64,000 nt of DNA from Candidatus Omnitrophota bacterium (GCA_003140935.1 PLLJ01000023.1:24824-88823), one strand, 5' to 3'; positions 16,524 through 43,119 are shown, counted from the stretch's first letter. Made by a program: numbers and translations. Notes: generated by a model not told the origin, from the letters alone.

Positions 16524-16596
16524 GAACGTGGGGTGAAGAAAGCGATGTTTTCTGTGGCGAACAACCTCATGGTGAATCTCCTCGGGCCGGCGGGAA

Positions 16597-16992: not shown

Positions 16993-17081
16993 TTTTTTCT
17001 CCCGTTGTTTTATTCAATATAAATAAAATTGACAGGCTTAAGTATGCTTTTAAATTGTGTCAAAAGACAGATGCAACTTCG

Positions 17082-17105
17082 TCTTTTCCCTGACTATTTT
17101 CCACC
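17082..17105 (-). promoter_or_regulatory. Recurring 26-bp motif, minus-strand copy, about 90 nt upstream of REC 16597-16992
   Basis: Reverse complement reads GGTGGAAAATAGTCAGGGAAAAGA and matches the consensus GGAAAAAAGTCRGAAAAAWGAGGA. Confidence 0.4.
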
Positions 17106-17195: not shown

Positions 17196-17222
17196 GGGGA
17201 AAAGTCAGAAAAAAGAGGAATG
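17196..17222 (+). promoter_or_regulatory. Recurring 26-bp motif, copy 1, about 70 nt upstream of the small Cys-rich ORF at 17290
   Basis: GGGGAAAAGTCAGAAAAAAGAGGAATG. Confidence 0.45.
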
Positions 17223-17289: not shown

Positions 17290-17472
17290 ATGGCAAAATT
17301 AGTAAGACGAGTCAACCAAAAGCGCGGTTATCAATGCTCTATTTGCGGAGAGAAGAAGGATAGCTTTTATGTATGTTGTGGTCATCCCATGATAGACCTT
17401 AAGACAAACTGGGATCTTCTGGATTGGGATATCCTGGATTGGAAAAAAAAGGCGTCACTTAAGAAGGGCTGA
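17290..17472 (+). CDS. Small basic Cys-rich protein (60 aa) with C-x2-C-x8-CCG motif; hypothetical
   Basis: GGTGGGA RBS 8 nt upstream. MAKLVRRVNQKRGYQCSICGEKKDSFYVCCGHPM... Paralogous to the 48-aa ORF at 31884. Confidence 0.4.
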   Translation: MAKLVRRVNQKRGYQCSICGEKKDSFYVCCGHPMIDLKTNWDLLDWDILDWKKKASLKKG

Positions 17473-17596
17473 TCCCGACAAATTCCGCGGGGCGTTGCGT
17501 CAAGCGAAGGGGATTCCCTTAAAAAAAAGAGGGCAGTATGAGGCTACAGGATGCGGCCAACGCTTTTGAAACTTGGGTGAGAAAAGAAGGTGAAAA

Positions 17597-17947
17597 GTGA
17601 TAGCCGAATTCTCAGTTTTCCAGATGAATGAATGCACGCCGATCAGCCGCACGATAACGGACGCCGCGAAGCTCGCTGAAGCTTCCGGACTGCCGTACCG
17701 TTTGACGCCGTCGACGATCTCCGTCAAAGGGGAATGGGACGAATTGTTCCTTTTGATCCGGAAGTGCCACGAGCGCGTCCGAGCACTAACGCCTCATGTG
17801 ATGACAACGATCTCGATTGAAGATGAGGACGGTCTCATGGACAAGATCGAAGATGGCAGCCGTGCCATTGAGGAGAAAATTACGAATCCTGCGACAGGGT
17901 GGAAGCCCAAAATACGCAATATAAAACCATCCAAAAACCAGATCTAA
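17597..17947 (+). CDS. MTH1187/YkoF-family (DUF77/UPF0045) small protein
   Basis: GTG start with AAGAAGG RBS. VIAEFSVFQM...GLPYRLTPSTISVKGEWDELFLLIRKCHE matches the MTH1187/YkoF fold signature. Confidence 0.7.
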   Translation: MIAEFSVFQMNECTPISRTITDAAKLAEASGLPYRLTPSTISVKGEWDELFLLIRKCHERVRALTPHVMTTISIEDEDGLMDKIEDGSRAIEEKITNPATGWKPKIRNIKPSKNQI

Positions 17948-18028
17948 GAATAGCAAAAACGTATTCACGCAGGTTATGGCCATAGAAAGAAAGCAGATCG
18001 CTTTAGGCATTTGCCGGGATTAAAAAAT

Positions 18029-19327
18029 ATGAAAATAGGGATCATCGGTTCAGGATATGTCGGGCTTGTGACGGGGGCCTGTTTGGCACATTTGGGGCAT
18101 AAGGTCATTTGCGTGGATCAGGATAAGGCCAAGATCCGGACTCTCAAGAATGGAAAAGTGCCCTTTTACGAACCGGGTCTTCTGGAAATGGTACTCGAAA
18201 ATGTATCTGCCAAAAGGCTCTCATTTACCACCGAGATATCCAAAGCCGTGAACCACTACGAAGTGCTTTTTGTATGCGTCAACACGCCGCCCAAGCCTCA
18301 GGGGGACTGTGACCTGAGTTTTGTGGGAAAGGTCACGAAACAGATCGCGACGCATCTACGAAGCTATTGTCTGGTTGTTGATAAAAGCACCGTTCCGGTC
18401 GAGACCGGAGCGTGGGTGCGTCAAACGATCCTCCGCCATGTCAAGAAAGGCGTCTCTTTCGATGTGGCTTCGAACCCCGAATTCTTAAGGGAGGGGTCTG
18501 CGATCCATGATTTCCTGCATCCGGACCGCATCGTGATCGGTGTTTCAAGCACACGCGCGGAAAAAATATTCAGGACACTTTACGACCCGCTCAAGGCCCC
18601 TATGATCGTCACAGACATCGAAAGCGCGGAACTGATCAAGCACGCGGCGAATTCTTTTTTGGCGACCAAGATCTCGTTCGCGAACGCGGTTTCCAGGATC
18701 TGTGATGCCGTGGGCGCGGATATCGAAAAGGTCACCCTGGGCATGGGACTTGATCCCCGCATCGGCAAACAGTTCCTGAACGCGGGGATCGGTTTCGGCG
18801 GGTCGTGTTTTCCCAAGGACGTGAGAGGCTTCCTGCATATCTCCGAAAAGTTGGGTGTGCGCTTTGATCTTCTTGCGGACGTTCTTCGGATCAATGACGA
18901 GCAGGCAAAATACTTTGTGGAGAAGATCAAAAGCTCCATGAAGATCCTTCGCGGCAAAACGATCGGAGTGTTGGGGCTGGCCTTCAAATCGGATACGGAT
19001 GATATGCGTTCGGCGCCCTCCATCCCCATCATTCAGATGCTTCAAAAAGAGGGGGTCTCTCTCCAGGCGTACGACCCTCAAGCTATGGACAAATCCCGGA
19101 AGATCTTTAACGGGGTGGAATTTGCAGAGGATCCCTTCGGGGCGGTCAAGGGAGCCCACGCGGTCGCCGTGCTTACGGAGTGGAGAGAATTCCTGAATCT
19201 CGATTGGGCGCGCGTCAAAAGGTCCATGAAAGACCGCTTCTTTTTCGATGGACGCAATCTATTCCAGCCGGCGGAGATGGTGAAGCTCGGATTTAAGTAT
19301 TTCAGCGTCGGCCGGCCCTCAGTCTGA
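18029..19327 (+). CDS. ugd: UDP-glucose 6-dehydrogenase (nucleotide-sugar dehydrogenase)
   Basis: MKIGIIGSGYVGLVTGACLA...GGSCFPKDV... is colinear with Ugd/UDPGDH. Confidence 0.85.
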   Translation: MKIGIIGSGYVGLVTGACLAHLGHKVICVDQDKAKIRTLKNGKVPFYEPGLLEMVLENVSAKRLSFTTEISKAVNHYEVLFVCVNTPPKPQGDCDLSFVGKVTKQIATHLRSYCLVVDKSTVPVETGAWVRQTILRHVKKGVSFDVASNPEFLREGSAIHDFLHPDRIVIGVSSTRAEKIFRTLYDPLKAPMIVTDIESAELIKHAANSFLATKISFANAVSRICDAVGADIEKVTLGMGLDPRIGKQFLNAGIGFGGSCFPKDVRGFLHISEKLGVRFDLLADVLRINDEQAKYFVEKIKSSMKILRGKTIGVLGLAFKSDTDDMRSAPSIPIIQMLQKEGVSLQAYDPQAMDKSRKIFNGVEFAEDPFGAVKGAHAVAVLTEWREFLNLDWARVKRSMKDRFFFDGRNLFQPAEMVKLGFKYFSVGRPSV

Positions 19328-19368
19328 GGGAAGACCTGCCTTCGCAGAGATCGCGGCGGTCCTGTTTT

Positions 19369-19770
19369 TTATTTGCGTGCTTCAGGCACAGAGAGCGGGC
19401 GTATTTTTTTCTGATTAAAAGCAAGGACCTTTAAGACCATATAAAAACCGAGAATGCCGACAGTATCAATGAAAATGTCCCGAATGGACCCGCTTCTTCC
19501 CTGGACGAACGACTGATGAAATTCATCCGATGCGGCATAGAAAAAAGAGAAAACGGCAGGATAGACAAAAAGATGAAAAACGTTCGTCACAAACGAACCT
19601 TTAAAGGCCCTGTACAGGAGGAAAGTAAGAATGAAATATTCGAAGACGTGAGCTATTTTCCTTAAGATCAGATCGCATTCAAGATTTGTTTTCAGGTTCG
19701 GAATACTTGAAAGCCAAAAAATGAAGCCCGCCCAAATTAAAACCAGAAACCATAGTTTAAAAATTTTCAC
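19369..19770 (-). CDS. VanZ-like membrane protein
   Basis: Four TM segments. LILRKIAHVFEYFILTFLLYRAF and DEFHQSFVQGRSGSIRD... motifs typical of the VanZ family. Confidence 0.65.
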   Translation of the reverse strand: MKIFKLWFLVLIWAGFIFWLSSIPNLKTNLECDLILRKIAHVFEYFILTFLLYRAFKGSFVTNVFHLFVYPAVFSFFYAASDEFHQSFVQGRSGSIRDIFIDTVGILGFYMVLKVLAFNQKKIRPLSVPEARK

Positions 19771-19890
19771 TCTGTCGATCCTTTCATTCTAATGAAACGG
19801 CATTGTACTCTGGGTGCCCCGTCGACTCAATAGGGTAGGTTGTCATGATAGGTGCTGACTCCAGGGCGATCTGACGCTGAAAAAATAAAA

Positions 19891-19918
19891 GGAGAAAAAA
19901 GTCGGAACAAAGTGGATG
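19891..19918 (+). promoter_or_regulatory. Recurring 26-bp motif, copy 2, about 105 nt upstream of hsp20
   Basis: GGAGAAAAAAGTCGGAACAAAGTGGATG. Confidence 0.4.
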
Positions 19919-20021
19919 TTGACCATTCATCACTTCCCGGCAATTCCATTAGAATGATCCCGCGATAAAAAAGGCCGTATTGGAAGAAGATTTCACTCAA
20001 TCAGGTGAAGGAGAAAACAAA

Positions 20022-20477
20022 ATGCACCCACTTGTAAAACACACAAACCGGTGGATCGATCCTTTTGATCTCGTCACGGATCTTCAGGGGGACGTGAACC
20101 GTTTATTTTCTTCGACTTTGCACCCGAGATCGCATGACGGTGTTGGGGAATTACTGCCGAATCTTGAGGTCAAGGAGGACGAGAACCAGTTCCTCGTGCA
20201 CCTCGATATCCCCGGGATGGAGCGCAAAGACCTGGATATTTCGGTCAGCGGCAAAATACTCACGGTAAAAGGGGAGCGGAAAGAAGAGGAAAGCAAAAAA
20301 GGAAAAGGCTATTTCTATTCCGAGCGTCGTTACGGAAGTTTCCATCGCTCGGTGGAACTGCCGGCTGAGGTGAAAGCCGACAAGGTTGAAGCCCATTACA
20401 AAGACGGCGTTCTGAAGCTGATCCTTCCAAAATCCGAGAAGGCCAAGGCAAAACAGATCAAAGTTGATGTGAAATAA
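20022..20477 (+). CDS. Small heat-shock protein, Hsp20/alpha-crystallin family
   Basis: AAGGAGAA RBS. ...FLVHLDIPGMERKDLDISVSGKILTVKGER...GSFHRSVELPAEVKADKVEAHYKDGVLKLILPK. Confidence 0.88.
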   Translation: MHPLVKHTNRWIDPFDLVTDLQGDVNRLFSSTLHPRSHDGVGELLPNLEVKEDENQFLVHLDIPGMERKDLDISVSGKILTVKGERKEEESKKGKGYFYSERRYGSFHRSVELPAEVKADKVEAHYKDGVLKLILPKSEKAKAKQIKVDVK

Positions 20478-20751
20478 AGCCTATCCAGGAACCGGTCCCC
20501 ATGGGTCCATAGCCGGATCAAAGAGGCGATGGCGGCTCTGTCTGTGCCGGACTTTTCGAAAGCACGGTTTGACTGATCCCGAGGGAGAGGATATTTTGAT
20601 TACAAAAAATTAATGCTGATTTAAGCTCCTGTTCATTTTCTCTGTGTTATGCTCCACCAGCCGAAAAAGGAGCGCAGGATAAAAGAGGTAACGAAATGGG
20701 ATCGGTATTGTAACGAGGCTCAACAGCGGAACCTAAGAAAAGGAGCAGGCT

Positions 20752-21072
20752 ATGAAGAAAAAATTGCTTCATGTTTCGACATTAGCGGTGATGGTTTTGC
20801 TTGTTACCGGGTGCGCGACTCCCTATCCCGTGGGGCTTCTTTACACGGAGCTGAATCTTCCTCACCAGGCGGTGTCGCAATCGGAGGTGTCCTACACGAA
20901 GGTGGGTGTTGCCAAGGCAACTTCGGTCCTGGGTCTTGTGACCACGGGGGATGCAAGCCAGCGGGCCGCCATACGCAATGGTCAGATCACAAAGGTTAAA
21001 TATATCGACTACTCGGTGAAGAACATCCTGGGGATCTATGGGGAGTATACCGTAACGGTCTACGGTGATTAA
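20752..21072 (+). CDS. TRL-like small lipoprotein
   Basis: AAAAGGAG RBS. Lipobox LVTGC. GLLYTELNLPHQ...AIRNGQITKVKYIDYSVKNILGIYGEYTVTVYGD is the TRL-domain pattern. Confidence 0.6.
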   Translation: MKKKLLHVSTLAVMVLLVTGCATPYPVGLLYTELNLPHQAVSQSEVSYTKVGVAKATSVLGLVTTGDASQRAAIRNGQITKVKYIDYSVKNILGIYGEYTVTVYGD

Positions 21073-21128
21073 GTGAACGGCAGCAAATACAACCGTAGGG
21101 TGAACGGGGATGGGCCCAGAGGAGCCGC

Positions 21129-21803
21129 ATGAGAGTTCTTGTGATCGAAGATGAGAAAAGGATGGCGGGCTTCATCGAGCGTGGGCTGAAAGAGGCGCAT
21201 TATGCCGTGGACCTGGCTTATGACGGGGAGCAGGGCATTCATCTGGCGGAGAACAACCCCTACGATCTGATCGTCCTCGACGTGGTCCTGCCTTATGAGA
21301 GCGGTTTTTTTGTTTGCGAGCATTTGAGGGACAAAGGGATCCAAACGCCCGTCCTTCTATTGACGGCCAAGAACGCGGTCAGAGATAAGGTGCGGGGGCT
21401 CGATGCCGGAGCGGACGATTACCTGACGAAACCGTTCGCTTTTGAAGAATTCATGGCACGGGTCCGAGCCTTGACGCGAAAAAACAGCCCTTCCAAGAAC
21501 AACATCCTCAAATTGGCCGACCTTGAGCTGGACCGCGTCACGCACAAAGTGTCCCGCGCGGGGCGGGAGATCACTCTGGCGAACAAGGAGTACGCTCTTC
21601 TGGAATACCTCATGCTCAATGCGGGCCATGTCATGACACGGACCATGATCTCCGAGCATGTGTGGAATGAGAGCTTTGACACCCTGACGAACGTCTTCGA
21701 TGTTTATATCCATCGTCTTCGCGGCAAGATCGACGAAGGATCCTCCAAGCCGCTGATTCACTCCGTGCGTGGCGTCGGCTATGTTCTGAAAGAGGACGCA
21801 TGA
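21129..21803 (+). CDS. OmpR-family response regulator (REC + winged-helix)
   Basis: MRVLVIEDEKRMAGFIERGL...LDVVLP...LTAKNAVRDKVRGLDAGADDYLTKPF...VRGVGYVL. Confidence 0.9.
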   Translation: MRVLVIEDEKRMAGFIERGLKEAHYAVDLAYDGEQGIHLAENNPYDLIVLDVVLPYESGFFVCEHLRDKGIQTPVLLLTAKNAVRDKVRGLDAGADDYLTKPFAFEEFMARVRALTRKNSPSKNNILKLADLELDRVTHKVSRAGREITLANKEYALLEYLMLNAGHVMTRTMISEHVWNESFDTLTNVFDVYIHRLRGKIDEGSSKPLIHSVRGVGYVLKEDA

Positions 21804-23296
21804 GAAAGAACTCGGTACGGTTCCAAATGAGCGTTCTTTTTACGGTCATCCTGGGGATCCTCGTGATCGCGCATAGCGCCGTGCTGTATTTTACGTTATC
21901 GCACGTGATCTACGGAGAGATCGACCAGGAGCTCCACGGAAAAGTCCGTGCGATCAATGATACGGTGGCGGCTTATTCCAATCTTATGGAGCCGAACTAT
22001 GAAATCACGCCCAAGTCGCTGAACCGGGCTCTGAGCCTTATCGATGCGGAGCAAACAAAGCTCTTTGACCCCCCGAAGATCAAAGCGCTTGACAAGGAAT
22101 GGCGGGATAAATTGCTCGGCCTGGGGCTTAATCACGATTATACCATCGTATTCTATCCCGACGGAGGCGTGGCGGAAATGAGCGGCAATATCCCGAAGGC
22201 GCTTCTTCCGGAATTGAAACGAATGGCTTTCAGCGTGACTTCCAAAAAGTCCCAGATCGCAATGATGCCCGAGGGCGTGGGTAAATTGAAGGCCATTGTC
22301 AGCCCGTCTTACCGCGAGAATAAACTGAAAAATATCCTGGTGATCGCCACATCGACGGCATCGACCGATGCGATCCTGCAAGGCCGTTTCACCCTTATCT
22401 TGATCACCGTTCCCACGGTGTTGCTCATTTCGATCTTTTTTGCCCTGTTCTTTGTCAAAAAAAGCCTTAGCCCTATCAAAGAGATCACGAGAACGGTCGA
22501 CGAGATCACTTACAAGGACATGAATAAACAGGTGGAGGTCCGATTGAAGGATCCGGAGATCACCGGTCTCAAAGACGCGCTCAATAAAATGCTCGTTCGT
22601 CTGCGCGAGTCCTTTCGGAACATGGATGATTTCAGTTCCAATGCGGCCCATGAACTGAAGACACCCATCGCGATCATCCGGGGAGAGGCGGAAGTCGCTC
22701 TCTTGGACGACCGGGATACGGAGGAATACAAAAGAGTGATCGGCGTTATTCTGGAAGAAGGGAAGCGGATGCTCAAAACGATCGACGATCTGCTTCTGGT
22801 GAACAAGATCGATTACCAGACGGAGGTGTTCACCTTCGAACCTATTGAAACGGCTGAATTTTTCTCCGAGATCATGGAACAGGCGAAGATCGTTGCGGCT
22901 CAAAAAGACATCGCCGTTGAATCCGAATTGCCGCCCTCGTCCCAGTTCATCAGCGCGAACAAACTTCACTTGCGGCGCCTCTTTTTCAATTTGATCGACA
23001 ACGCGATCAAATTCACCGCGTCGGGGGGGACCATCGGCATTAAGGTATCGTACGCCGATGACAGGCTGAAAGCCGAAATCTCCGACACGGGGATTGGGAT
23101 CCCGCCCGAGGACCTGAAAAAGATCTACGACAGGTTCTTCCGCGTGGACCGGACCAGCTGGGGGAATGTTCCCGGCAGCGGTCTGGGGCTCAGTATCGCA
23201 AAGTCGATCGCGACCATGCACCATGGGACCCTGGACGCGCAGAGCGAGCTCGGAAAAGGCACGACCTTCACCATCGGTCTTCCTCTGATCAAGTAG
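21800..23296 (+). CDS. Sensor histidine kinase (periplasmic sensor, HAMP, HisKA, HATPase), partner of the OmpR regulator
   Basis: ATGA overlap. H-box AAHELKTPIAIIRGEAEV; N, G1 and G2 boxes (DNAIKFT, GSGLGLSIAKSIATMHHG). Confidence 0.9.
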   Translation: MRKNSVRFQMSVLFTVILGILVIAHSAVLYFTLSHVIYGEIDQELHGKVRAINDTVAAYSNLMEPNYEITPKSLNRALSLIDAEQTKLFDPPKIKALDKEWRDKLLGLGLNHDYTIVFYPDGGVAEMSGNIPKALLPELKRMAFSVTSKKSQIAMMPEGVGKLKAIVSPSYRENKLKNILVIATSTASTDAILQGRFTLILITVPTVLLISIFFALFFVKKSLSPIKEITRTVDEITYKDMNKQVEVRLKDPEITGLKDALNKMLVRLRESFRNMDDFSSNAAHELKTPIAIIRGEAEVALLDDRDTEEYKRVIGVILEEGKRMLKTIDDLLLVNKIDYQTEVFTFEPIETAEFFSEIMEQAKIVAAQKDIAVESELPPSSQFISANKLHLRRLFFNLIDNAIKFTASGGTIGIKVSYADDRLKAEISDTGIGIPPEDLKKIYDRFFRVDRTSWGNVPGSGLGLSIAKSIATMHHGTLDAQSELGKGTTFTIGLPLIK

Positions 23297-23429
23297 CAAG
23301 CAGGGTCAACCTTCCCGGCGGTCTGTTTTCCATGAACAAGATTTAATTCTCTATTAATCCTCTTGTCATCCGCCGTATGAGAAGATCGCGCCGGTTAAAA
23401 GACAAAAGTTCAATAACGAAGGAGACACT

Positions 23430-23801
23430 ATGAAACAAATACTGATCGTGGATGATGAAAAGAGAATGACGAGGCTTTACGAGTACATTTTGACCCAAAA
23501 GGGTTACAAAACGTTCGTAGCCGATAGCGCAAACGACGCGAACGAGATCTTGAAAAAAGAAAAGGTCGACGTGGTCCTCCTGGATATCAACATGCCTGGA
23601 GCGGGCGGAGATGATCTTTACGGTGTGATGAAACTCTTCCATCAAGAAGTAAAAGTGATCATCAGCAGCGTTCTTCCCATCGGTAGGCAGAAGCAGCTTG
23701 TGCCCGGGGCGACGGCGTATTATGACAAATCCCAGGCCATCGAGATGCTTTTCAGCAAGATCGTCAAGGCCTGCACGGAAAGCCCGATCGCAGTGAAATA
23801 G
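23430..23801 (+). CDS. Stand-alone REC-domain response regulator
   Basis: AAGGAGA RBS. MKQILIVDDEKRMTRLYEYIL...VVLLDINMPGAGG. Confidence 0.8.
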   Translation: MKQILIVDDEKRMTRLYEYILTQKGYKTFVADSANDANEILKKEKVDVVLLDINMPGAGGDDLYGVMKLFHQEVKVIISSVLPIGRQKQLVPGATAYYDKSQAIEMLFSKIVKACTESPIAVK

Positions 23802-23880
23802 ACCCCAAGTAGAATTCCGAAAATCACTTCCCCCGATCGAAGGAAATGCCACAAAGGGTATTTTTGTTTTCTTTGAGCGG

Positions 23881-23908
23881 GTAGAAAAAAGTCAAAAAAA
23901 AGGGGAAG
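23881..23908 (+). promoter_or_regulatory. Recurring 26-bp motif, copy 3, about 360 nt upstream of the AraC-type response regulator, with an inverted half-site at 23917-23933
   Basis: GTAGAAAAAAGTCAAAAAAAAGGGGAAG, then GCTGACTTTTTTCCACC, which is the reverse complement of GGTGGAAAAAAGTCAGC. Confidence 0.4.
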
Positions 23909-24268
23909 CCTGTCATGCTGACTTTTTTCCACCTTTGCTATTATTTGCGGTGTCATCAGGCCTGAGACCGGAAAACGAGTAGCTTACAAAAGCGTTCACA
24001 GCTCACGAAAGGCACAGATGGAAAAATTGACTTATTTCCATCATCGATCTATATTATTTATACGGCTTTTTGCGATTCAAACCCCGCTTTTAATGGTGTA
24101 TTTAAAATAGATCGAAACCATGCTGACAAGCCCTCGTAGACGATTTGAAACTGCAAGCACGTCTTATCCCCGCTGTGCGTTATTCCGGATACGGTTCTCC
24201 ATCCAAAGTAAAATGTGTTCTGTGTTTGCTGAACATTTTTCCGATCACATTAAAAGAGAGGTGCTTCA

Positions 24269-25038
24269 TGCCTGAAACTATATTACTCGTCGACGATGAC
24301 AAGGAATTCAGAGAGGAATTCAGGGAGTTCCTCTCGGGCTATCAGATCCGTGAGGCGGCCAACGGCCGGGAGGCCCTGGATATTTTGCATAAGGCCCATG
24401 ACATCGATCTCATGATCCTGGATGTCAACATGCCGCAATTGGGCGGGATCGAAGTCCTGAAGGAAATAAAAAGAACGGATCCCAATGTGGGGATCATCAT
24501 TCTGACAGGCTACAGCGACAAGGACACCGCGATCGAAGCCCTCAAAGGACACGCGGACGATTATCTCGAAAAGCCCGTGGATCCCGAAAAGATGCGGACC
24601 CTGATCGAGAAACACCTTGAAAAAAAGCACGCGGGGAGCGATATCGATACTTCGAATACGCAGGGAAAGATCGAGAAGGTGAAACGCTTTCTCGAGAGGA
24701 ATTGTTTCAAAAAGGCGGGTCTGACGGAAGCGGCGCGGGCCGTGTGCCTGAGCCCCAAATATCTGAGCCGGATCTTCAAGGAAGAAACGGGGGAGAGCTA
24801 CGTCGGATATCGGCTCAAGATCAAGATCGAAAAAGCCAAAGAGCTTTTAACGCAAGGCGGCGGCAATGTCAGCCAGATCGCCTACAAGCTCGGCTATGAA
24901 AATCCGGAATCCCTGATCCGTCAGTTCAAGAAATTCACGCACAAGACGCCGGCGAAATTCCGTCAGAGCATTGCGAAACAAATTCCCGCGGGCGGGAAAA
25001 TCAGTCGGAAGGAAAAAACCGGGAAAAGAGCGGAATAA
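24269..25038 (+). CDS. Response regulator with AraC-type HTH output (REC + HTH_AraC)
   Basis: AGAGAGG RBS. MPETILLVDDDKEFREEF...LMILDVNMPQLGG; C-terminal VSQIAYKLGYENPESLIRQFKKFTHKTPAKFR. Confidence 0.85.
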
Positions 25039-25041
25039 CTC

Positions 25042-25665
25042 ATGAACCCAGAGACTCGCAGAAAGATCGCAAAGATTCTGGCGCTCGCCGTGAGCCTTGC
25101 CGGCATCCTGGTGATCCTCGGCTGGATCTTCAATATCGGTTTCTTGAAAAGTCTCTCTTCGGCCTGGATCTCCATGAAATTCAATACGGCCTTTGTCTTT
25201 GTCTTGAGCGGCCTGATCCTTTATTTTATTGTCCAGACCGGGGAAGGCAAACCCGATGTGGCCCAAGTCGTTCTCCCCATTGCCTCGCTCGTGATCCTGC
25301 TTTTGATGGGGACCTTGTTCTTTGGTAACCTTTTGGGTGTCCAAACAGGAGCGGAAGAACTGTTTATGCGGGACCTGAGCTCTGCTCCCACGACGGTCAC
25401 TCCCGGCATGCCGTCGTTACCGACGATGTTCAATTTTATATTGATCGCAAGCGCCGCTATTTTGACCCTTTTTAACCCCGAAAAATTATCAGCCATGCTG
25501 AAAAACATCGGACTTATCGTCGGGTGGGTCGGGGTCGTAGCGGTTCTCGGCTATCTGATAAATATTCCGCTTCTTTATTATTTCATCGCAGGTGTCAACA
25601 ACGCGATGGCCTGTCATACCGCGATCCTGTTCATGCTCCTGGGAGCCGGATTTTTATGTCTCTAA
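25042..25665 (+). CDS. Polytopic membrane protein (5-6 TM); possible sensory or accessory module of the downstream kinase
   Basis: Hydrophobic throughout. Its 3' end overlaps the start of the histidine kinase by 10 nt. Confidence 0.5.
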   Translation: MNPETRRKIAKILALAVSLAGILVILGWIFNIGFLKSLSSAWISMKFNTAFVFVLSGLILYFIVQTGEGKPDVAQVVLPIASLVILLLMGTLFFGNLLGVQTGAEELFMRDLSSAPTTVTPGMPSLPTMFNFILIASAAILTLFNPEKLSAMLKNIGLIVGWVGVVAVLGYLINIPLLYYFIAGVNNAMACHTAILFMLLGAGFLCL

Positions 25666-28274
25666 AAGCAAAACTCATCATTCTGTTTCTGGCGATTGCT
25701 TTGATCCCTTTGGTTTTCGTAAGCGCCTTGACCGTCCATAACTATCAAAATTCCATAGAAACGGCCCACCTGTCGGACCTTCAGCATATCGCCCTATTTA
25801 AAGCCGATAAAATAGAAGCCCATTTTGTCGATTTGAAAAAAAATCTCGAAGTTATCCGGAACATCTATGCGGTCAAAAAAAATCTTCCCATTCTGGACCG
25901 GCTTGTTCATGACCCGACCGATCCCAACTTTGTCGCGGCACAAAAGATGCTCAATGAAATATTCCCGAAAGCGACAAACGTTTGGAACCTGTTCGACATC
26001 ATGCTGCTTGGTCCTCAAGGGAACATCGTTTATTCAAGTAAGCCCGGTTATCACCCGGAGGTTTTTCCGAAAGGATTGCCGGCTCGTTATCAAGAAGCTT
26101 TTGAGAATGGGAAAAAAGGGATCTATTTTTCAGAGGTATTTCCTAACGAGAAAGAAAAGGACAAGACGACGATCTTGGCAACAGCCCCTGTGTCTGATCT
26201 TCACGGTCTTCCCGCGGGAGTGATTGTTTTCGAAGTAAATATGGAGCCCTTTTTCAAACTTATTCAAGATGTTACAGGTCTTGGCAAGACCGGCGAGACC
26301 TTGATCGGAAAAAAAGAGGGAGATAAAGTAGTATTTCTGAATCCCCTCAGGCATGACCCTGAAGCAGCTTTTAAACGCTATACAACTATCGGCAGTGTTG
26401 TGGGAGAGGCGTTACAACATGCGGTACAAGGCCAAAACGGATTCGGCTATACCATTGATTACCGCGGTAAACCGGTGGTAGCGGCTTGGCGGTACCTTCC
26501 ATTGTTAAGGTGGGGGGTTGTGGCCAAGATCGATCGCGAGGAGGCCTTTGCGGAGATCATCCATTTAAGACATGTCGTGATCATCTTAATTGTCATTATT
26601 TCCGCTTTGGCTGGCATCACGGCGTTTTCCATAGCTCAGTCCATTTCCGGGCCTATCCAAAAGCTCTCAAAAGGCGCGGAGATCATTGGGAAAGGGAACC
26701 TGGATTATAAAGTCGGAACCTCTCTCAAGGATGAAATCGGGCAGCTTTCAAGGGCATTCGACAAAATGACCGCTGAGCAAAAGCAGGCCCAAGATTCTTT
26801 GCGCCAAACCTCGTTTTATGCCAGGAGTCTTCTCGAAGCATCTTTGGATCCTCTGGTCACGATCTCGGCCTACGGCAAGATCACGGATGTTAACGAAGCT
26901 ACGATCAAGGCGACCGGCTTGTCCCGGGGAGATCTTGTCGGCACCGATTTTTCCGATTACTTCACAGAACCGGTTAAAGCCAAGGCGGGCTATCAAGAAG
27001 TCTTTTCGAAAGGATTTGTCACAGACTACCCGCTGACGATACGCCATAAGGACGGACATTCAACGGATGTTCTCTACAATGCCAGTGTTTATAAAGATAC
27101 TCACGGTAATGTCCTGGGAGTTTTCGCCGCGGCGCGCGACATAACTTTATTGAAACAAACTTCTCAATACGCCCGAAGCTTGATCGAATCTTCCCTTGAT
27201 CCCTTGGTCACGATCTCCGCCGACGGAAAAATTACGGACGTCAATGAAGCGGCTATCAAGGCGACCGGTCTGTCCCGGGGAGATCTTGTCGGAACAGATT
27301 TTTCCAATTACTTTACGAAGCCTGAAAAAGCCAAGGCAGGCTATCAAGAAGTCTTTTCGAAAGGATTTGTCACAGACTACCCGCTGACGATACGCCGCAA
27401 GGACGGACATTTAACGGATGTTCTCTATAACGCCAATATCTATAAAGATACTCGCGGTAATGTCCTGGGAGTTTTCGCCGCAGCACGTGATGTGACAGAA
27501 CTGAAAAAAGCAGAAGCGGAACTAAGGCGTCATCGCGACAGCCTCGAAGTTCTGGTGGCGGAGCGAACCGCCGATCTTCAAACAGCAAATCAAGAGCTCG
27601 CAAGTTCCAACGAAAATCTGGAGCAATTCGCCTACGTCGCGTCCCATGACCTTCAGGAACCCTTGCGGGTCATGTCCAATTTTTCGCAATTGTTGGAAAA
27701 ACGTTATAAGGATAAGCTGGATCAAGACGCGAATGAATTTATCGAGTTTATCGTGGATGCGGCAAAACGCATGCAGAAACTGATCACGGACCTTCTCGCT
27801 TATTCGCGGATAGGCAAAAAAGACATTGCCGAGACCGAAGAAGATCTCAACAAGATGGTTCAAAAAATACTGGACGGCATGGCGGCGACTCTGGAATCAA
27901 GCGGCGGTACGGTGACTTATGATACACTTCCAGCGTTGAGGGTCCACGCAACGAGTATAATGCAGGTTTTTCAGAATTTGATCGGCAACGCGTTGAAATT
28001 CCACGAGAAACTACCCCCCCGAGTCCATATCAGCGCAAGAAAAGACGGAGAGGAGTGGATCTTTTCCGTGCGGGATAATGGTCTGGGGATCGAACCGCAA
28101 TACCACGAGCGGATCTTCCAGATCTTCCAGCGCCTGCATTCCAAGGAAGAATATTCCGGCACCGGCATCGGTCTCTCCATCTGCAAAAAAATAGTGACGA
28201 ATTACGGAGGACGGATCTGGGTCGAATCCGAACACGGCAAAGGCTCGACTTTTTATTTCACAATCCCCACATAA
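25656..28274 (+). CDS. Sensor histidine kinase: TM, Cache-like periplasmic domain, HAMP, two PAS domains, HisKA, HATPase
   Basis: ATG at 25656 (MSLKAKLIILFLAIALIPLVF). H-box FAYVASHDLQEPLRVMSNFSQLL. G-boxes RDNGLGIEPQYHERIFQ, GTGIGLSICKKIV. The track ORF 25524 includes an upstream extension. Confidence 0.88.
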   Translation: MSLKAKLIILFLAIALIPLVFVSALTVHNYQNSIETAHLSDLQHIALFKADKIEAHFVDLKKNLEVIRNIYAVKKNLPILDRLVHDPTDPNFVAAQKMLNEIFPKATNVWNLFDIMLLGPQGNIVYSSKPGYHPEVFPKGLPARYQEAFENGKKGIYFSEVFPNEKEKDKTTILATAPVSDLHGLPAGVIVFEVNMEPFFKLIQDVTGLGKTGETLIGKKEGDKVVFLNPLRHDPEAAFKRYTTIGSVVGEALQHAVQGQNGFGYTIDYRGKPVVAAWRYLPLLRWGVVAKIDREEAFAEIIHLRHVVIILIVIISALAGITAFSIAQSISGPIQKLSKGAEIIGKGNLDYKVGTSLKDEIGQLSRAFDKMTAEQKQAQDSLRQTSFYARSLLEASLDPLVTISAYGKITDVNEATIKATGLSRGDLVGTDFSDYFTEPVKAKAGYQEVFSKGFVTDYPLTIRHKDGHSTDVLYNASVYKDTHGNVLGVFAAARDITLLKQTSQYARSLIESSLDPLVTISADGKITDVNEAAIKATGLSRGDLVGTDFSNYFTKPEKAKAGYQEVFSKGFVTDYPLTIRRKDGHLTDVLYNANIYKDTRGNVLGVFAAARDVTELKKAEAELRRHRDSLEVLVAERTADLQTANQELASSNENLEQFAYVASHDLQEPLRVMSNFSQLLEKRYKDKLDQDANEFIEFIVDAAKRMQKLITDLLAYSRIGKKDIAETEEDLNKMVQKILDGMAATLESSGGTVTYDTLPALRVHATSIMQVFQNLIGNALKFHEKLPPRVHISARKDGEEWIFSVRDNGLGIEPQYHERIFQIFQRLHSKEEYSGTGIGLSICKKIVTNYGGRIWVESEHGKGSTFYFTIPT
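26806..27497 (+). repeat. Tandem direct duplication of a ~340-bp PAS-domain segment inside the kinase gene
   Basis: Unit 1 (about 26806-27140) and unit 2 (about 27159-27497) share 60-nt perfectly identical runs, for example ggctatcaagaagtcttttcgaaaggatttgtcacagactacccgctgacgatacgcc. Protein units are about 85% identical. Confidence 0.8.
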
Positions 28275-28289
28275 CAAAAGGAGAAAAAA

Positions 28290-28754
28290 ATGGCTGATGG
28301 TAACGGTAATCACGTAAATCCGATCGATGTGCTTTTGGTGGAGGACAGTCCGGCGGACGTCAGATTGACCCGGGAAGCGCTTAAGGAAGAGAAGATGCGC
28401 ATCAATCTGCATGTGGCCGTGGACGGCGTCGAGGCAATGCAATTTTTACACCGGGAAGGCAAATTTGCCGAGGTTGCACTGCCGGACCTGATCCTTTTGG
28501 ACCTGAACCTTCCCAAAAAGGACGGTCGCGAGGTGCTTAAGGAGATCAAAGCGGACGCAGGCTTGAAAAGGATCCCCGTGGTCATTCTCACGATGTCCAA
28601 GGCGGAAGAAGATGTTTTAAAGACCTATGATCTTCACGCGAACTGTTATATTACGAAGCCCTTGGATCTAAAGCAGTTTTCAAAGGTGGTGAAATCCATA
28701 CAGGAATTTTGGATGACCATCGTGAAGCTGCCGCCCAATGAGGATAAAAAATAA
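28290..28754 (+). CDS. Stand-alone REC response regulator (Rcp1-like, phytochrome-associated type)
   Basis: [39 protein letters not shown]...[35 protein letters not shown]...YITKP. Confidence 0.85.
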
Positions 28755-28818
28755 AAAAGCAAATAATGACATTAAAAGAAAGCGAAGTGATTTCGTGGCA
28801 GGATCGCGTATCTTGTTA

Positions 28819-28855
28819 GTACCGCATCATATTTGCAATCAGGGGTATGCGGTAC
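28819..28855. promoter_or_regulatory. Perfect 9-bp inverted repeat GTACCGCAT-N19-ATGCGGTAC upstream of the hybrid kinase
   Basis: Read directly from the sequence. Lies 85 nt upstream of the ATG at 28939. Confidence 0.3.
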
Positions 28856-28938
28856 AATACTGTTAACCCCTAAAATCAAATAAAGAACAGTATTAGCGAC
28901 AGTTGGAAGGGCCATACTCATGAGGATGATTTAAGCTT

Positions 28939-31323
28939 ATGGAAAAAAAGCATATCGATATTCTCATCATTGAGGACAGTCCCGCAGACCGCAAGCTTGC
29001 AGAGCTGATGCTCCAGGAATCGACGGTCCCTTCCTTTGGCATCCGTTATGCCGTCCGCCTTGAAGAAGCCCGGAAAATGCTGGAAACGGAGCCTTTCGAT
29101 ATTATTCTCATGGATCTTGACCTTCCGGATAGTTCCGGGCTGGACGGTTTGAGAAAGATCACGGACAGGCCCGGAAGTCCTCCGGTGGTGGTGCTGACCG
29201 GTCTCGAAGACGAGGCGATGGGTTTGGAGGCTTTGGAAAAAGGGGCCAGTGATTTTCTGGTCAAAGGGCGGCTTACGCTCAATAGCCTGATCCGCAGCCT
29301 TCTCTACGCTCTCACGCGCCGGGAAATGGAACAGAAATTGCTCGACGAACAGCGCAATCTTCAGGCTATCTTCGATGCTGCGAACGTCGGCATGATCTTG
29401 ATCGATGAAACCAGTGCCGTTCAACGGATCAATCGTGTTATTCAGCAATGGACCGGCAAGGGAGCTCCAACGGCCTACGGTGTCCAACCCGGCAATATTT
29501 TGGGATGTATCCACGCTTTGAGCGATTCGGCGGGTTGTGGGCATACGCTGCGTTGCCAAGCATGTCCTATGCGTAAAATCTTCGAAAGTGTACTCCATGC
29601 CGGACAGCCGCTCCACGATATCGAGATGGAAATGACGCTCATGATCGGCAGTGATCAAGCGCATCTCCATCTGGCCGTCAGTGCGGATCCCCTTGTCCTT
29701 AATGGAAAACGGCATGTGATCTTGGCCTTGAATAACATCACCGCGCGCAAGCAGGCCGAAGACGCGTTGCGCCGGAGCCGGGAGGATCTGGACCGGGCCC
29801 AGGCTGTCGGACAGATCGGAAGTTGGCGGCTGGATATCGGCCGGAATATTCTGACATGGTCTGTCGAGAATCATTTCATTTTCGGCGTGCCCGAGGGAAC
29901 GCCTATGACGTATGAAACGTTCCTGGGGATCGTTCATCCCGAGGACCGGCAATATGTGGATGACCGGTGGAAAGCGTGTTTGAACGGCGAACCCTACGAC
30001 ATCGAGCACCGGATCGTGGTGGACGGAGTGGTGAAATGGATTCGCGCGAAGGCTTACCTGGAATACGATGCCGCGGGCAAGTTGCTGGGGGGCTTTGGGA
30101 TCAGCCAGGACATTAGCGAACGCAAACAGATCGAGGAGGCACTACGCGCAAGTCAGGAGCGTCTCGCGCTCGCTGCCGGAGGTACAGGCATCGGAATGTT
30201 TGATTGGGATATTGCGACTGGCGAGGCGGTCGGGACGGAACAACTCCTCCGGATGATCGGACTTCCTGTAACAACAACAACAACGACGACGACGGCGCTT
30301 TCCTATCAGTATTATTACCGGGATTGGGCCAAAGCCATTCATCCAGAAGATATGCCGCACGTCGAAAACGAGATCCGACGTTGCAAGACCGGACGAGTTC
30401 CGTTTAATATTGAGTACCGGGTCGTTTGGCCCAATGGAAGTGAGCATTGGCTCGCCGTCCGCGGTGTATTCCGGTGTGACACGTACGGCGAGCCACAGCA
30501 CATGCTCGGCATTGCGTTTGATATTACTGACCGTAAACATGTTGAGGAGATCCTGAAGCGCGATGTAGAGACTTTTGAACGGATCGCTCAGGAACGCACC
30601 GCGGAACTGTGGGAAGCTCAGCTCAAGCTGGCCCAGAGCAAACGGCTCTCCGATATCGGTGCTTTGGCCGCGACCGTAGCGCATGAACTCCGGACACCGC
30701 TCGGCGTGATCCGCATTGGGGCCTATAATATGAAGCGGAAAACTGAGGACCCGGCGCTGCTCAAGCACATTTCTCATATCGAAACAAAAGTCATTGAGGC
30801 TGACAAGATCATCAGCAATCTTCTCCTTTATTCCCGCATCAAGATGCCCAGCATGGAAGAGGTCCGTCTGTATGATCTTTTGAAGGAGTGCGTGGATCAC
30901 GCAGTAGAAAACTTGAAGGATCATCCGGTCCGGATCCTTTCGCAATTCGATCCTATCCAAAATGAATCCGTGAAACTGGACCCGCTTCAGATCAAGGAGG
31001 TTTTCCACAATATCCTTGCGAATGCGGTGGACGCTTTGGCCAACCGTAAAGACGGACAGATCAAGGTAAGCGCCCTTCGTTACGGTCCGAAGAAAGAAAT
31101 CTCGATCACATTTGAAGATAACGGGATAGGTATCAGTGAGCCGGATCTTAAAAGGATCCACGAACCGTTTTTCACGACCAAATCCAAAGGAACAGGTTTG
31201 GGATTGACGGTCTGCACACAGATCATTCATAACCACGGCGGAAGGATCGAAGTCGCCAGTCAGATAGGCCAAGGTTCAGTTTTTACGGTCATCCTACCGG
31301 TCAGAGAAGGAATGATTGGATGA
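28939..31323 (+). CDS. Hybrid sensor kinase: N-terminal REC, three PAS/PAC domains (first with a 4-Cys motif), HisKA, HATPase
   Basis: DILIIEDSPADRKLAELMLQ...IILMDLDLPDSSG (REC). H-box ATVAHELRTPLGVIRIG. G-boxes EDNGIGISEPDLKRIHEPFFTTK, GTGLGLTVCTQIIHNHGG. Confidence 0.88.
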   Translation: MEKKHIDILIIEDSPADRKLAELMLQESTVPSFGIRYAVRLEEARKMLETEPFDIILMDLDLPDSSGLDGLRKITDRPGSPPVVVLTGLEDEAMGLEALEKGASDFLVKGRLTLNSLIRSLLYALTRREMEQKLLDEQRNLQAIFDAANVGMILIDETSAVQRINRVIQQWTGKGAPTAYGVQPGNILGCIHALSDSAGCGHTLRCQACPMRKIFESVLHAGQPLHDIEMEMTLMIGSDQAHLHLAVSADPLVLNGKRHVILALNNITARKQAEDALRRSREDLDRAQAVGQIGSWRLDIGRNILTWSVENHFIFGVPEGTPMTYETFLGIVHPEDRQYVDDRWKACLNGEPYDIEHRIVVDGVVKWIRAKAYLEYDAAGKLLGGFGISQDISERKQIEEALRASQERLALAAGGTGIGMFDWDIATGEAVGTEQLLRMIGLPVTTTTTTTTALSYQYYYRDWAKAIHPEDMPHVENEIRRCKTGRVPFNIEYRVVWPNGSEHWLAVRGVFRCDTYGEPQHMLGIAFDITDRKHVEEILKRDVETFERIAQERTAELWEAQLKLAQSKRLSDIGALAATVAHELRTPLGVIRIGAYNMKRKTEDPALLKHISHIETKVIEADKIISNLLLYSRIKMPSMEEVRLYDLLKECVDHAVENLKDHPVRILSQFDPIQNESVKLDPLQIKEVFHNILANAVDALANRKDGQIKVSALRYGPKKEISITFEDNGIGISEPDLKRIHEPFFTTKSKGTGLGLTVCTQIIHNHGGRIEVASQIGQGSVFTVILPVREGMIG
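30268..30291 (+). repeat. Trinucleotide repeat (ACA)4(ACG)4 encoding Thr8 in an inter-PAS linker
   Basis: acaacaacaacaacgacgacgacg, read directly. Confidence 0.7.
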
Positions 31324-31724
31324 GTTCCAAGATCCTGATCATTGATGATGATGAGATGCTCTGCGAGGAGCTCGCCGAGATCCTTACCGGGAACGGGTAT
31401 GATGTGACAACGGCCTTTGACGGCCAGGAGGGTCTCGATGCGATCCAAAGAGCCCCTTATGATCTGGTTCTTTTAGACATTAAAATGCCTCACATGAACG
31501 GGCTCGAAGCCTTAAAAGAGATCAAGAAAAGCAAAACTGCCCCGAAAGTGATCATCCTGAGCGCCAACCATTCGGTCAATGTTTTTTTAGGCGAGACGGT
31601 GGATATACCCCATGATTATCCGCAACAAATTCTTGAACTTGCGGACGGCGTCATGAATAAACCCTACGATGTCGAAACCCTTCTCGCCAGGATCCGGGGT
31701 TTGCTGAGCGTACCGCGTTCCTGA
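31320..31724 (+). CDS. Stand-alone REC-domain response regulator
   Basis: ATGA overlap with the hybrid kinase stop. ILIIDDDEMLCEELAEIL...LVLLDIKMPHMNGLEALKEIKK. Confidence 0.85.
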   Translation: MSSKILIIDDDEMLCEELAEILTGNGYDVTTAFDGQEGLDAIQRAPYDLVLLDIKMPHMNGLEALKEIKKSKTAPKVIILSANHSVNVFLGETVDIPHDYPQQILELADGVMNKPYDVETLLARIRGLLSVPRS

Positions 31725-31787
31725 TCAAAGCCTTCTCCGGGAAAACTTCCCCCTGTTATTTACCCCTTTTTCTCATTTCCCGGCCCA

Positions 31788-31817
31788 GTAGAAACAAGTC
31801 AAGAAAAAGGGGATACC
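31788..31817 (+). promoter_or_regulatory. Recurring 26-bp motif, copy 4, about 70 nt upstream of the small Cys-rich ORF at 31884
   Basis: GTAGAAACAAGTCAAGAAAAAGGGGATAC. Confidence 0.45.
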
Positions 31818-31883
31818 TTCTATTCTGTTTTTCTGATCTCACAGCTATGCTTCTCTCAGGCAGGTGAAAGCGAAGGAGATGCG

Positions 31884-32030
31884 ATGAAGAAAGGAAGGAA
31901 AGCGAAAAGATCAGCAAAAACTCTATACGGTTGCAAGTACTGTGAATATGAGTCGGCCGCAAAAGAAATATGCTGCGGAGAAACGATACGGCCAAACCAT
32001 AAAACAGATAACGAAAGGGGGCTGCCATGA
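31884..32030 (+). CDS. Small basic Cys-rich protein (48 aa) with C-x2-C-x9-CCG motif; hypothetical (below the ORF-track cutoff)
   Basis: AAGGAGA RBS 5 nt upstream. MKKGRKAKRSAKTLYGCKYCEYESAAKEICCGETIRPNHKTDNERGLP. Its stop overlaps the next ATG (ATGA). Paralog of the 17290 product. Confidence 0.4.
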   Translation: MKKGRKAKRSAKTLYGCKYCEYESAAKEICCGETIRPNHKTDNERGLP

Positions 32031-32224
32031 GCGCTTGGCGTGATACCTACGAAGATATGACTTATTTTCCAAGGGTTCTCCGGAGGATCCGGCATCAAAA
32101 TAATATGATGACCATCCAGCATCTTCTGGAAGAGGCGTTTGATGGAAACCAACGCCTCCGTGAGTTTTGGAATGAGGTCGAAAAAGAGAACGGCGAGCGG
32201 TCGCAGGAATGGGAGGGTGAATGA
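32027..32224 (+). CDS. Small acidic hypothetical protein (65 aa), translationally coupled on both sides
   Basis: AAGGGGG RBS. ATGA overlaps with both the upstream small ORF and the downstream REC gene. Confidence 0.4.
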   Translation: MSAWRDTYEDMTYFPRVLRRIRHQNNMMTIQHLLEEAFDGNQRLREFWNEVEKENGERSQEWEGE

Positions 32225-32631
32225 ACGCCGATCCGGTGAATTCGGGTGGTCCCGTTGAAAATGCAATGACGGTGCTGGCCGTTGATGATGACGAGATCTT
32301 TTTGGAGGAACTGAGCGATGTGCTTGCGTCAAGCGGCTACGAAGTGGTCACGATAACCGACCCTCGAAAGGCTGTGGATGCGGCACTCGAAGCCAGGCCG
32401 GCGGTGATCCTTATGGATATGAAGATGCCCGGCAAAAGCGGGCTCGAGATCGCGCATGAAATGCGGTACCGGCCTGCCTTGGCCCATGTTCCGATCATTG
32501 CCATGAGCGGTTTTTTAAAAGAAAGCAACCTGCCCTTCATGGAAACATGTGGGATCAAAAAATGCCTTAAAAAACCGTTCAATCCTCTGGATATTATTTG
32601 GGAGATCGAAGAAGTATTGAAGAAGGAATGA
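32221..32631 (+). CDS. Stand-alone REC-domain response regulator, paralog family 1
   Basis: VLAVDDDEIFLEELSDVLASSGYEV...VILMDMKMPGKSGLEIAHEMR...IIAMSGFLKE...KKPF. Confidence 0.85.
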   Translation: MNADPVNSGGPVENAMTVLAVDDDEIFLEELSDVLASSGYEVVTITDPRKAVDAALEARPAVILMDMKMPGKSGLEIAHEMRYRPALAHVPIIAMSGFLKESNLPFMETCGIKKCLKKPFNPLDIIWEIEEVLKKE

Positions 32632-33595: not shown

Positions 33596-33605
33596 GGAAC
33601 GGAAA

Positions 33606-34127: not shown

Positions 34128-34159
34128 ACCATGCACTTAACAAAAGGAAGAGCCGATCC

Positions 34160-34711: not shown

Positions 34712-34723
34712 CGGATATGATCT

Positions 34724-43006: not shown

Positions 43007-43036
43007 GATGGAAAAAAGTCGGAAAAAAGAGGAACC
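43007..43036 (+). promoter_or_regulatory. Recurring 26-bp motif, copy 5, about 85 nt upstream of REC 43120, followed by an inverted TTCCTTTTTTCC arm
   Basis: GATGGAAAAAAGTCGGAAAAAAGAGGAACC atcctat TTCCTTTTTTCC. Confidence 0.45.
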
Positions 43037-43119
43037 ATCCTATTTCCTTTTTTCCCTCTCCTATCATTATGTCCCTGTAATGAGGAGACCGGACGGGTAT
43101 CGTCTCCGAAGGAGGACCC

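Follow-up and report, generated by a model that had tools for sequence, protein, structure and literature searches.

The stretch of DNA analysed here (64,000 nt from a Candidatus Omnitrophota bacterium, GCA_003140935.1 PLLJ01000023.1:24824-88823, referred to below as the window) contains two very small genes, A and B, whose products carry a basic N-terminus followed by four cysteines, and which lie beside the genes of paralogous single-domain receivers. Gene A encodes 60 residues (MAKLVRRVNQKRGYQCSICGEKKDSFYVCCGHPMIDLKTNWDLLDWDILDWKKKASLKKG), with the core YQC-x2-C-x9-CCGHPM after the basic N-terminus and an acidic, Trp-rich tail (NWDLLDWDILDW); gene B encodes 48 residues (MKKGRKAKRSAKTLYGCKYCEYESAAKEICCGETIRPNHKTDNERGLP), with the core YGC-x2-C-x9-CCGE-x-[MI]. 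Both translations match the peptides quoted in a preliminary description of this DNA, which gave their shared pattern as C-x2-C-x8-9-CCG; the pattern itself stands, with the spacing corrected to x9 in both proteins. Also borne out are the shared basic N-terminus (5 and 7 Lys or Arg among the first 13 residues of A and B, respectively, and no acidic residue) and the ribosome-binding sites of the two genes, the Shine-Dalgarno-like GGTGGGAG and AAGGAG. A six-frame regular-expression search of the window for C-x2-C-x(4-22)-CC returns A and B as its sole matches, while second-order Markov shuffles give a chance expectation per window of 0.00 for the pattern with its G, 0.03 at x9 spacing and 0.17 at x7-11.

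Pairwise BLASTP aligns the two proteins weakly (29% over 21 residues), and the case for their paralogy is therefore based on the cysteine pattern and on context. As first described, gene B is coupled through an ATGA overlap (32027-32030) to an open reading frame (ORF) for a 65-residue acidic protein (isoelectric point, pI, 4.98), which is coupled in the same way (32221-32224) to the gene of a receiver, REC2. Gene A is divergent from the gene of REC1, a receiver 54% identical to REC2; 125 nt separate A from the next ORF, and no coupled gene lies behind it. Each of A and B is the first gene behind a copy of a 23-nt motif, with a core-to-start distance of 90 nt in both.

Coding evidence and family members

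A word-indexed search for protein homologues returned only an identical protein for A and none for B, and gene B is left uncalled by the gene callers on every contig of the same species. The JGI calls on one such contig (L096; contigs and loci are denoted by handles of this form) place a spurious antisense 88-residue ORF (1136-1402) over the B region and reduce the 65-residue gene to 38 residues. The NCBI protein set lacks A, and both small genes are thus missing or wrong in public annotation, from which ORFs of fewer than 60 residues that head operons are systematically dropped. Because B is uncalled and the protein search yielded nothing for it, orthologues of B were sought in syntenic metagenomic contigs using the receivers as anchors.

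The family comprises ten members from at least eight contigs, eight of the members lying beyond the window. Orthologues of B are found in L087 (2983-3108, MKKKPKTSKKKKTLYGCEYCEYESATKERCCGEMMQPRKSR), L094 (3422-3544, including TPYECGSCGAKSSKKDECCGEKMQPKKS) and L085 (4952-5092), the last of which keeps the frame and the ATGA coupling and has Tyr in place of the first and third cysteines, the result of two independent TGC-to-TAC changes. The B frame is broken in L086 (about 9610-9745), and the peptide is absent from L093 (2133-2270), where the motif, the 65-residue gene and the receiver are retained. B is decaying in some lineages, stepwise through L085, L086 and L093, and the downstream 65-residue gene and receiver are intact in all three. 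Gene A has an uncalled orthologue in L088 (5410-5613, minus strand, starting MARLVRRIKHRWKHNYQCCICGERDHRVRICCGHLMIALRPNWDLLDWDIMEWKK) with the same divergent receiver and motif; L088 and L086 are one contig. A HMMER search with a profile of A and B against 1.84 billion representatives yielded two new small proteins, P0123 (54 residues) and P0124 (70 residues), both containing [YF]QC..C-x9-CCGHPM, and scanning metagenomes with the alignment of A-type members added L091 and L092. Of the profile's five hits among the representatives, P0122, a repeat protein of 1585 residues, and P0125, a C2H2 array, were rejected as spurious knuckle matches.

The preliminary description had made conservation of the reading frame in relatives one test of its proposal. 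The frame is conserved: by the Nei-Gojobori method, the proportions of non-synonymous (pN) and synonymous (pS) differences are 0.195 and 0.765 between A and L088 (ratio 0.26, Fisher p = 9e-10), and 0.255 and 0.789 between B and L087 (ratio 0.32, Fisher p = 1.6e-6), with a relaxed ratio of 0.44 (p = 0.051) between B and the Tyr-substituted L085. A and B are genuine paralogous protein-coding genes, under purifying selection where intact.

It seems highly improbable to us that these ORFs have no function as proteins and are either upstream or leader ORFs tuning downstream expression or fortuitous reading frames within a 5' region that is itself conserved. A role as leader would suit B as a very short first cistron translationally coupled to the next gene, its decay in L086 and absence from L093 with the operon intact, and the relaxed ratio in the L085 lineage, but not the ratios far under 1 nor gene A, which has no coupled gene behind it. 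Moreover, the signature residues are kept among members of about 25-35% overall identity from unrelated contexts, and the profile and predicted-fold match to a real domain described below would not be expected of a leader. A Cys-sensing leader peptide was likewise rejected, conservation at the protein level reaching past the cysteines, as was the precursor of a ribosomally synthesised and post-translationally modified peptide, no maturase- or transporter-like gene being present in the neighbourhoods examined.

Relationship to desulforedoxin

Desulforedoxin (Dx), an iron protein from anaerobes, forms a homodimer and binds a single Fe through four cysteines in distorted tetrahedral geometry. The preliminary description recognised no named family in the two peptides; their pattern, Y-x-C-x2-C ... 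[VI]-C-C-G-[EH]-x-M, is however the Dx signature minus six hairpin residues. The family consensus is [YF]-x-C-x2-C-[GE]-x8-[VI]-C-C-G-[HE]-x-M. Nine of the ten members have the four cysteines as C-x2-C and an adjacent C-C, the exception being L085, and the x9 spacing is common to all ten. The residues flanking the cysteines in Dx are likewise present, with Tyr or Phe two before the first Cys, Gly after the Cys pair and Glu or His next in 10/10 members, and Met at the fourth position after the pair in 9/10 (Ile in window B). The only Pfam lead that spans the signature is PF06397, the desulfoferrodoxin N-terminal domain, which two of the seven members scanned match at E ≤ 1. The canonical pattern of desulfoferrodoxin centre I is CX2CX15CC (SORGOdb, PMC3116461). 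Since the peptides depart from this pattern and miss the Pfam threshold, we have filed them as a variant: judged from profiles and predicted folds, the family is a short-loop relative of Dx and not a regular member.

Comparison of the ten-member alignment by hhalign with three Dx sequences from the PDB (desulforedoxin and the Dx domains of two superoxide reductases, SORs) gives a probability of 90.7%, an E-value of 1.2e-6 and a score of about 30.6-30.7, and the match covers both cysteine knuckles, interrupted once, by a gap of 6 residues in the hairpin. Permutations in which the Cys columns were fixed and the other Dx columns shuffled (n=60) score 11.7 ± 2.2, with a maximum of 16.7; the real score lies far above these, and the match therefore exceeds the cysteine pattern alone. 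In the AlphaFold model of P0123 the core has a predicted local distance difference test (pLDDT) score of 83-91, and when this model was compared by Foldseek with 350,542 PDB chains, each of the best six matches was to Dx or to the Dx domain of SOR, at E-values (0.26-1.4) that are non-significant for so small a domain. The top match, 1dxg_A, is aligned over 34/36 residues with a probability of 0.98 and a template modelling (TM) score of 0.63. The model of A is poor (pLDDT 58.8), and its highest-probability Foldseek match is the Dx domain of D. baarsii SOR (E = 0.6).

Other small cysteine-rich folds were considered and rejected. Rubredoxin (PF00301) would call for a second CxxC, which the peptides lack, and hhalign aligns it over only 13 columns and one knuckle, at 25.6% probability; a regular-expression search of the window found no CxxCG...CPxCG ORF. 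In zinc ribbons each of two beta-hairpins bears a CxxC (or CxxH) knuckle, and the earlier suggestion of a zinc ribbon is not upheld, as the second ligand pair of the peptides is an adjacent CC; the zinc-ribbon structures Nop10 and aIF2 rank below Dx in Foldseek. The HdrB-type CCG domain (PF02754) is long and rich in cysteine, and combines CCG with a distal CxxC; only one of the seven members matches it (E = 0.047), and the peptides fall well short of its length.

Two features go beyond the desulforedoxin sequence of the PDB: the basic N-terminal tail, with 4-8 Lys or Arg among the first 13 residues of every member, and the acidic tail of the A-type, which is Trp-rich in some. The pI is about 9-9.6 in 7/10 full-length peptides; several A-type members are net acidic (pI 4.6-5.7). 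A basic tail, present in 10/10 members, would also fit a structural Zn(Cys)4 miniprotein that binds nucleic acid, such as the motif DNA or an mRNA leader, and that takes no part in redox chemistry, being a small regulator or a protein of the nucleoid or ribosome. We regard this as improbable. The Foldseek matches below Dx do include archaeal Nop10, aIF2 and other RNA- or ribosome-binding zinc knuckles, and the top matches in the PDB profile search are C2H2 fingers, but these cover one knuckle only and fall below Dx in the better model. The net acidic A-type members, the lack of a helix-turn-helix or other recognised DNA-binding fold in the peptides, and the adjacent Cys pair, which typifies the Dx iron site and not zinc ribbons, also argue against nucleic-acid binding.

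Linkage of the peptides to receivers

The receivers REC1, REC2 and REC3 match PF00072 (E 5e-18, 2e-20 and 7e-17, respectively), and their alignment conserves DDD, LLD-x-KMPG, MSG and KKPF, corresponding to the acidic pocket, the phospho-acceptor Asp, the Ser/Thr and the Lys. They are acidic, with a pI of 4.4-5.2, and the orthologues of REC2 in L085, L086 and L087 are 71-90% identical to it by global alignment. The subfamily is abundant in metagenomes, where its NCBI-named sources are nearly always Candidatus Omnitrophota.

The linkage of peptide and receiver subfamily proposed from the window recurs in other organisms, and 9/10 loci show it in three arrangements: the receiver gene is directly downstream in L090, L091 and L092, past the 65-residue gene in four B loci, and divergent in two A loci. 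Members L089-L092 were found by peptide similarity alone, and the linkage there is therefore an unbiased confirmation; three of these four are immediately followed by a receiver. The receivers beside L090-L092 have 48-56% identity to REC2, where a neighbouring receiver of generic type has 30%, and L091 and L092 resemble two-gene modules of peptide and receiver without detoxification genes. In L089 (961-8165), P0123 lies just past a tRNA gene bordering an integrase-containing island. The linkage is not reciprocal, about half of the receivers examined having no peptide. A scan of a genome collection for the receiver gave one close relative among the at least 80 loci listed, in an Elusimicrobia metagenome-assembled genome (L005, 52%), with no Cys peptide alongside; at the other 79 listed loci the receivers are generic, and every C-x2-C-x7-11-CC hit there is out of frame and amounts to noise in GC-rich sequence.

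The description of these receivers as orphans does not hold, since the REC1 gene is followed by that of a HisKA_3 kinase and a kinase gene is the last of the REC2 operon. In the window (14198-16992), and also in L088 and L095, receiver and HAMP-HisKA_3 kinase are accompanied by a convergent REC-LuxR regulator, a three-gene set that suggests a branched or phosphate-sink arrangement.

The upstream motif and its regulon

Seven copies of the 23-nt motif (consensus GAAAAAAGTCAGAAAAAAGRGGA) with at most 3 mismatches are present in the window, starting at 17197, 19894, 23884, 31791, 43011, 47568 and 54815, all on the plus strand and against 0.00 expected. Its form, GT.GAAA.AAGTCAG.AAAAAG.GGA, comprises two A-tracts 11 bp apart. 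The region between A and REC1 contains two opposed copies, one per gene, as does the corresponding region of L088 (5894, plus; 5707, minus). The motif lies 89-90 nt before the B orthologues of L085, L087 and L094 and is kept in the B-less L086 and L093. Its linkage to the peptides, first noted in the window, thus extends to other organisms: it is found at 9/9 loci with upstream sequence, at 89-91 nt in six.

A scan of the interval between the motif and either start codon found no sigma-70-type promoter and no -35 element, and a TAnnnT box lies about 30 nt downstream of the motif, which makes an activator site or UP-like element the probable nature of the motif. Candidate regulators acting through it are a REC-AraC protein (24145-25038), itself behind a motif copy, and an OmpR-type protein (21129-21803). 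Besides A and B, copies in the window precede an HSP20 gene, the REC-AraC regulator with kinases, REC3 with an alcohol dehydrogenase, and a 186-residue protein with only a sub-threshold NCBIfam match. The motif recurs in the related contigs (L085-L095), across which it marks a conserved putative regulon. The first gene behind a further copy is an ORF for a 111-residue Cys-rich protein (CECGCP, CAFCE), a candidate for a further small metalloprotein; just downstream is the gene of a flavoprotein of the ferredoxin/rubredoxin-reductase (flavorubredoxin-reductase) family.

The B operon and neighbouring genes

The features of the window that bear on A and B are collected in Table 1. The 65-residue protein and a 132-residue protein flank REC2 in five or six syntenic loci, and neither has relatives in Pfam, NCBIfam or the PDB. 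The gene order of the B operon is conserved in L085, L086 and L087, and the ferritin/rubrerythrin-like protein is encoded in every B locus. L087 has in addition a 1Fe-SOR without Dx domain (4748-5152), inserted between the ferritin-like and DJ-1 genes; the operon of L094 adds MsrAB, and that of the ERZ1426847 contig adds a peroxiredoxin, a flavodiiron-like protein and an FNR-like protein. By its predicted products, the B-type operon is an oxidative-stress-type gene set. Elsewhere in the window there are long internal direct repeats: the gene of a 916-residue sensor kinase has 300 nt of its PAS region duplicated at 83% identity (26805-27455), and that of a 1163-residue beta-helix/Fn3 surface protein contains several repeats of 230-270 nt (12235-13869).

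Table 1. Positions of genes A and B, associated motif copies and neighbouring genes in the window.
Feature	Position	Strand	Remarks
HAMP-HisKA_3-HATPase histidine kinase	15060..16523	-	downstream of REC1; conserved behind REC1 orthologues in L088 and L095
REC1, single-domain receiver	16597..16992	-	PF00072; divergent from A; synteny in L088 and L095
Weaker motif copy (5 mismatches)	17079..17101	-	faces REC1
Motif copy before A	17197..17219	+	GGGAAAAGTCAGAAAAAAGAGGA; core 90 nt from the A ATG; same arrangement in L088
Gene A	17290..17472	+	60-residue mini-desulforedoxin-like protein, A-type; from translation, relatives and hhalign to Dx
Motif copy before B	31791..31813	+	GAAACAAGTCAAGAAAAAGGGGA; 90 nt from the B ATG
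Gene B	31884..32030	+	48-residue mini-desulforedoxin-like protein, B-type; first cistron of a long operon
65-residue acidic protein	32027..32224	+	ATGA-coupled to B and REC2; conserved in six loci; dN/dS 0.2-0.4
REC2, single-domain receiver	32221..32631	+	same subfamily as REC1
132-residue helical conserved protein	32666..33064	+	
Rest of B operon	33152..37863	+	ferritin/rubrerythrin-like diiron protein, DJ-1/PfpI, Ysc84-like, aldehyde dehydrogenase, HisKA kinase (36247-37863)
Motif (43011-43033) and REC3 (43120-43521)	43011..43521	+	third paralogous receiver (46%); no Cys peptide
Motif, 111-residue Cys-rich ORF (47715-48050) and flavoprotein (48180-49385)	47568..49385	+	

This gene content invites the idea that the peptides are electron carriers, in which a mini-Dx Fe(Cys)4 protein would take electrons one at a time from a reductase dependent on NAD(P)H and pass them to detoxifying enzymes of the same regulon (1Fe-SOR, the ferritin/rubrerythrin-like diiron protein and a flavodiiron protein), with receiver adjacency reflecting co-regulation only. 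Dx is known as a fused partner of such enzymes, in 152 Dx-SOR proteins of SORGOdb (PMC3116461) and in the desulforubrerythrin of C. jejuni (PMC7482061). The Dx-less SOR of L087 and the diiron partners are separate genes in the same operons as the peptides, and the flavoprotein behind another motif copy is a candidate reductase. Against this, the most constant neighbour of the peptides is a receiver and not a redox enzyme, A-type members occur outside detoxification operons, the B operon of the window has no SOR, and B or two of its cysteines have been lost where the whole detoxification operon persists. The basic tail is also unlike the acidic N-terminal stretch of D. gigas desulforedoxin, and rubredoxins too are generally acidic, unlike the basic-tailed A and B. 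On balance we consider an electron carrier the main rival reading, possible if rather unlikely.

Proposed role of the peptides

Taken together, alignments and predicted folds describe A and B as members of a family of previously unannotated proteins of 40-70 residues, combining a Lys/Arg-rich tail with what appears to be a shortened desulforedoxin-type Cys4 site. From their sequence and surroundings, the peptides are most likely Cys4 metal-binding miniproteins induced with a stress regulon, and a metal-binding or redox role is the most plausible for A and B. Metal binding, contact with the receiver and the direction of signalling are proposals that we draw from sequence and context.

In the mechanism we propose, A and B would be transcribed from the conserved motif-bearing promoter region, alongside the HSP20, two-component and oxidative-stress-type genes, and the miniprotein would bind Fe (or Zn) via its four cysteines. 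As dictated by its redox state or its metal loading, the peptide could then contact the neighbouring receiver in the manner of a small connector protein, its basic tail docking on the acidic receiver, and oxygen, reactive oxygen species (ROS) or iron status would thereby enter the phosphorelay governing the motif regulon. The peptide as a redox or iron input to the receiver is a tentative reading, but one that we consider quite possible, and the likeliest of those weighed here, because of the adjacency of receivers in three arrangements, the peptide-receiver modules outside detoxification operons, and the complementarity of charge. Its most specific form, in which a free shortened Dx-type Fe(Cys)4 protein would be a dedicated oxygen, ROS or iron sensor that gates phosphorylation of an acidic CheY-like receiver via its basic tail and so controls the A-tract/GTCA-motif stress regulon in Omnitrophota-like bacteria, is unlikely. 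If true, it would be a previously undescribed route for redox information into two-component signalling.

Several observations weigh against this proposal and the relationship to Dx on which it builds. Gene A scores 16.6 bits against PF06397 (E = 0.0063), below the cut-off of 23, hmmsearch of the PDB with the family profile reaches 1cfw at E = 2 and 1dfx at E = 8, and all the Dx matches by Pfam, PDB hmmsearch and Foldseek lie under database-wide significance. The loop has 9 residues in place of the canonical 15, which bears on the geometry of the putative site. As for the receivers, L089 is the sole member with none adjacent, those of REC3, L095 and L093 lie behind the motif without a peptide, and L086 and L093 keep the 65-residue gene and receiver with B broken or absent, so that the receiver does not depend on the peptide; their lying side by side may mean no more than that they are regulated together. 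The two Cys-to-Tyr replacements in L085 make the metal site dispensable in at least one lineage, and this loss, together with that of the gene from L086 and L093, weakens the sensor and the electron carrier alike.

The peptides offer a testable candidate for the coupling of redox or iron status to phosphorelays in strict or micro-aerotolerant anaerobes, and, with about 25 core residues, a compact natural scaffold for a putative Cys4 metal site.

Comparison with known systems

PmrD and IraP/IraM/IraD, small proteins of the connector or anti-adaptor kind, bind to receiver domains, and RsrA, a ZAS anti-sigma factor, senses redox state through a metal site bound by cysteines. The logic proposed for A and B would be alike, in that a small stress-induced protein modulates a two-component or sigma module; PmrD, the Ira proteins and RsrA have no sequence or fold relationship to the family, and the comparison is one of analogy only. 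Rubredoxin resembles the family as a small Fe(Cys)4 carrier of anaerobes with a similar first knuckle, Y-x-C-x2-CG, but its second knuckle is C-P-x-C-G, about 30 residues away.

The Dx domains of 2Fe superoxide reductase (desulfoferrodoxin; 1DFX, 1VZG, 2JI1) and desulforubrerythrin are closer, sharing the Cys4 signature including CCGEPM. They are associated with oxidative-stress enzymes, and here SOR and ferritin/rubrerythrin-like proteins are encoded in the same operons as the peptides. In contrast to these domains the family is free-standing, departs from CX2CX15CC (PMC3116461) and has a receiver as its constant neighbour.

D. gigas desulforedoxin (1DXG/1CFW; PF06397) is both the best profile-profile and the best predicted-fold match of the family. 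Like A and B it is tiny (36 residues) and has C-x2-C and an adjacent C-C, and its flanks VYKC..CG and LVCCGEDM match [YF]QC..C[GE] and [VI]CCG[HE]xM of the family. The differences lie in the loop, of 9 and not 15 residues, and in an added basic N-terminal extension of about 13 residues; the A-type adds an acidic C-terminal tail and has His for Glu after CCG. The fold family is a known one, and the novelty lies in the x9 loop and the basic tail, in the gene being free-standing, in the linkage to receiver and motif, and in the lineage; nothing comparable was found in the desulforedoxin literature searched. Studies of desulforedoxin have dealt chiefly with its bioinorganic chemistry, for which it is a model, and with its fusions to superoxide reductase or rubrerythrin, and the physiological role of the free protein is, to our knowledge, not settled. 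A shortened natural Dx, conserved across uncultured lineages, would be informative on that role.

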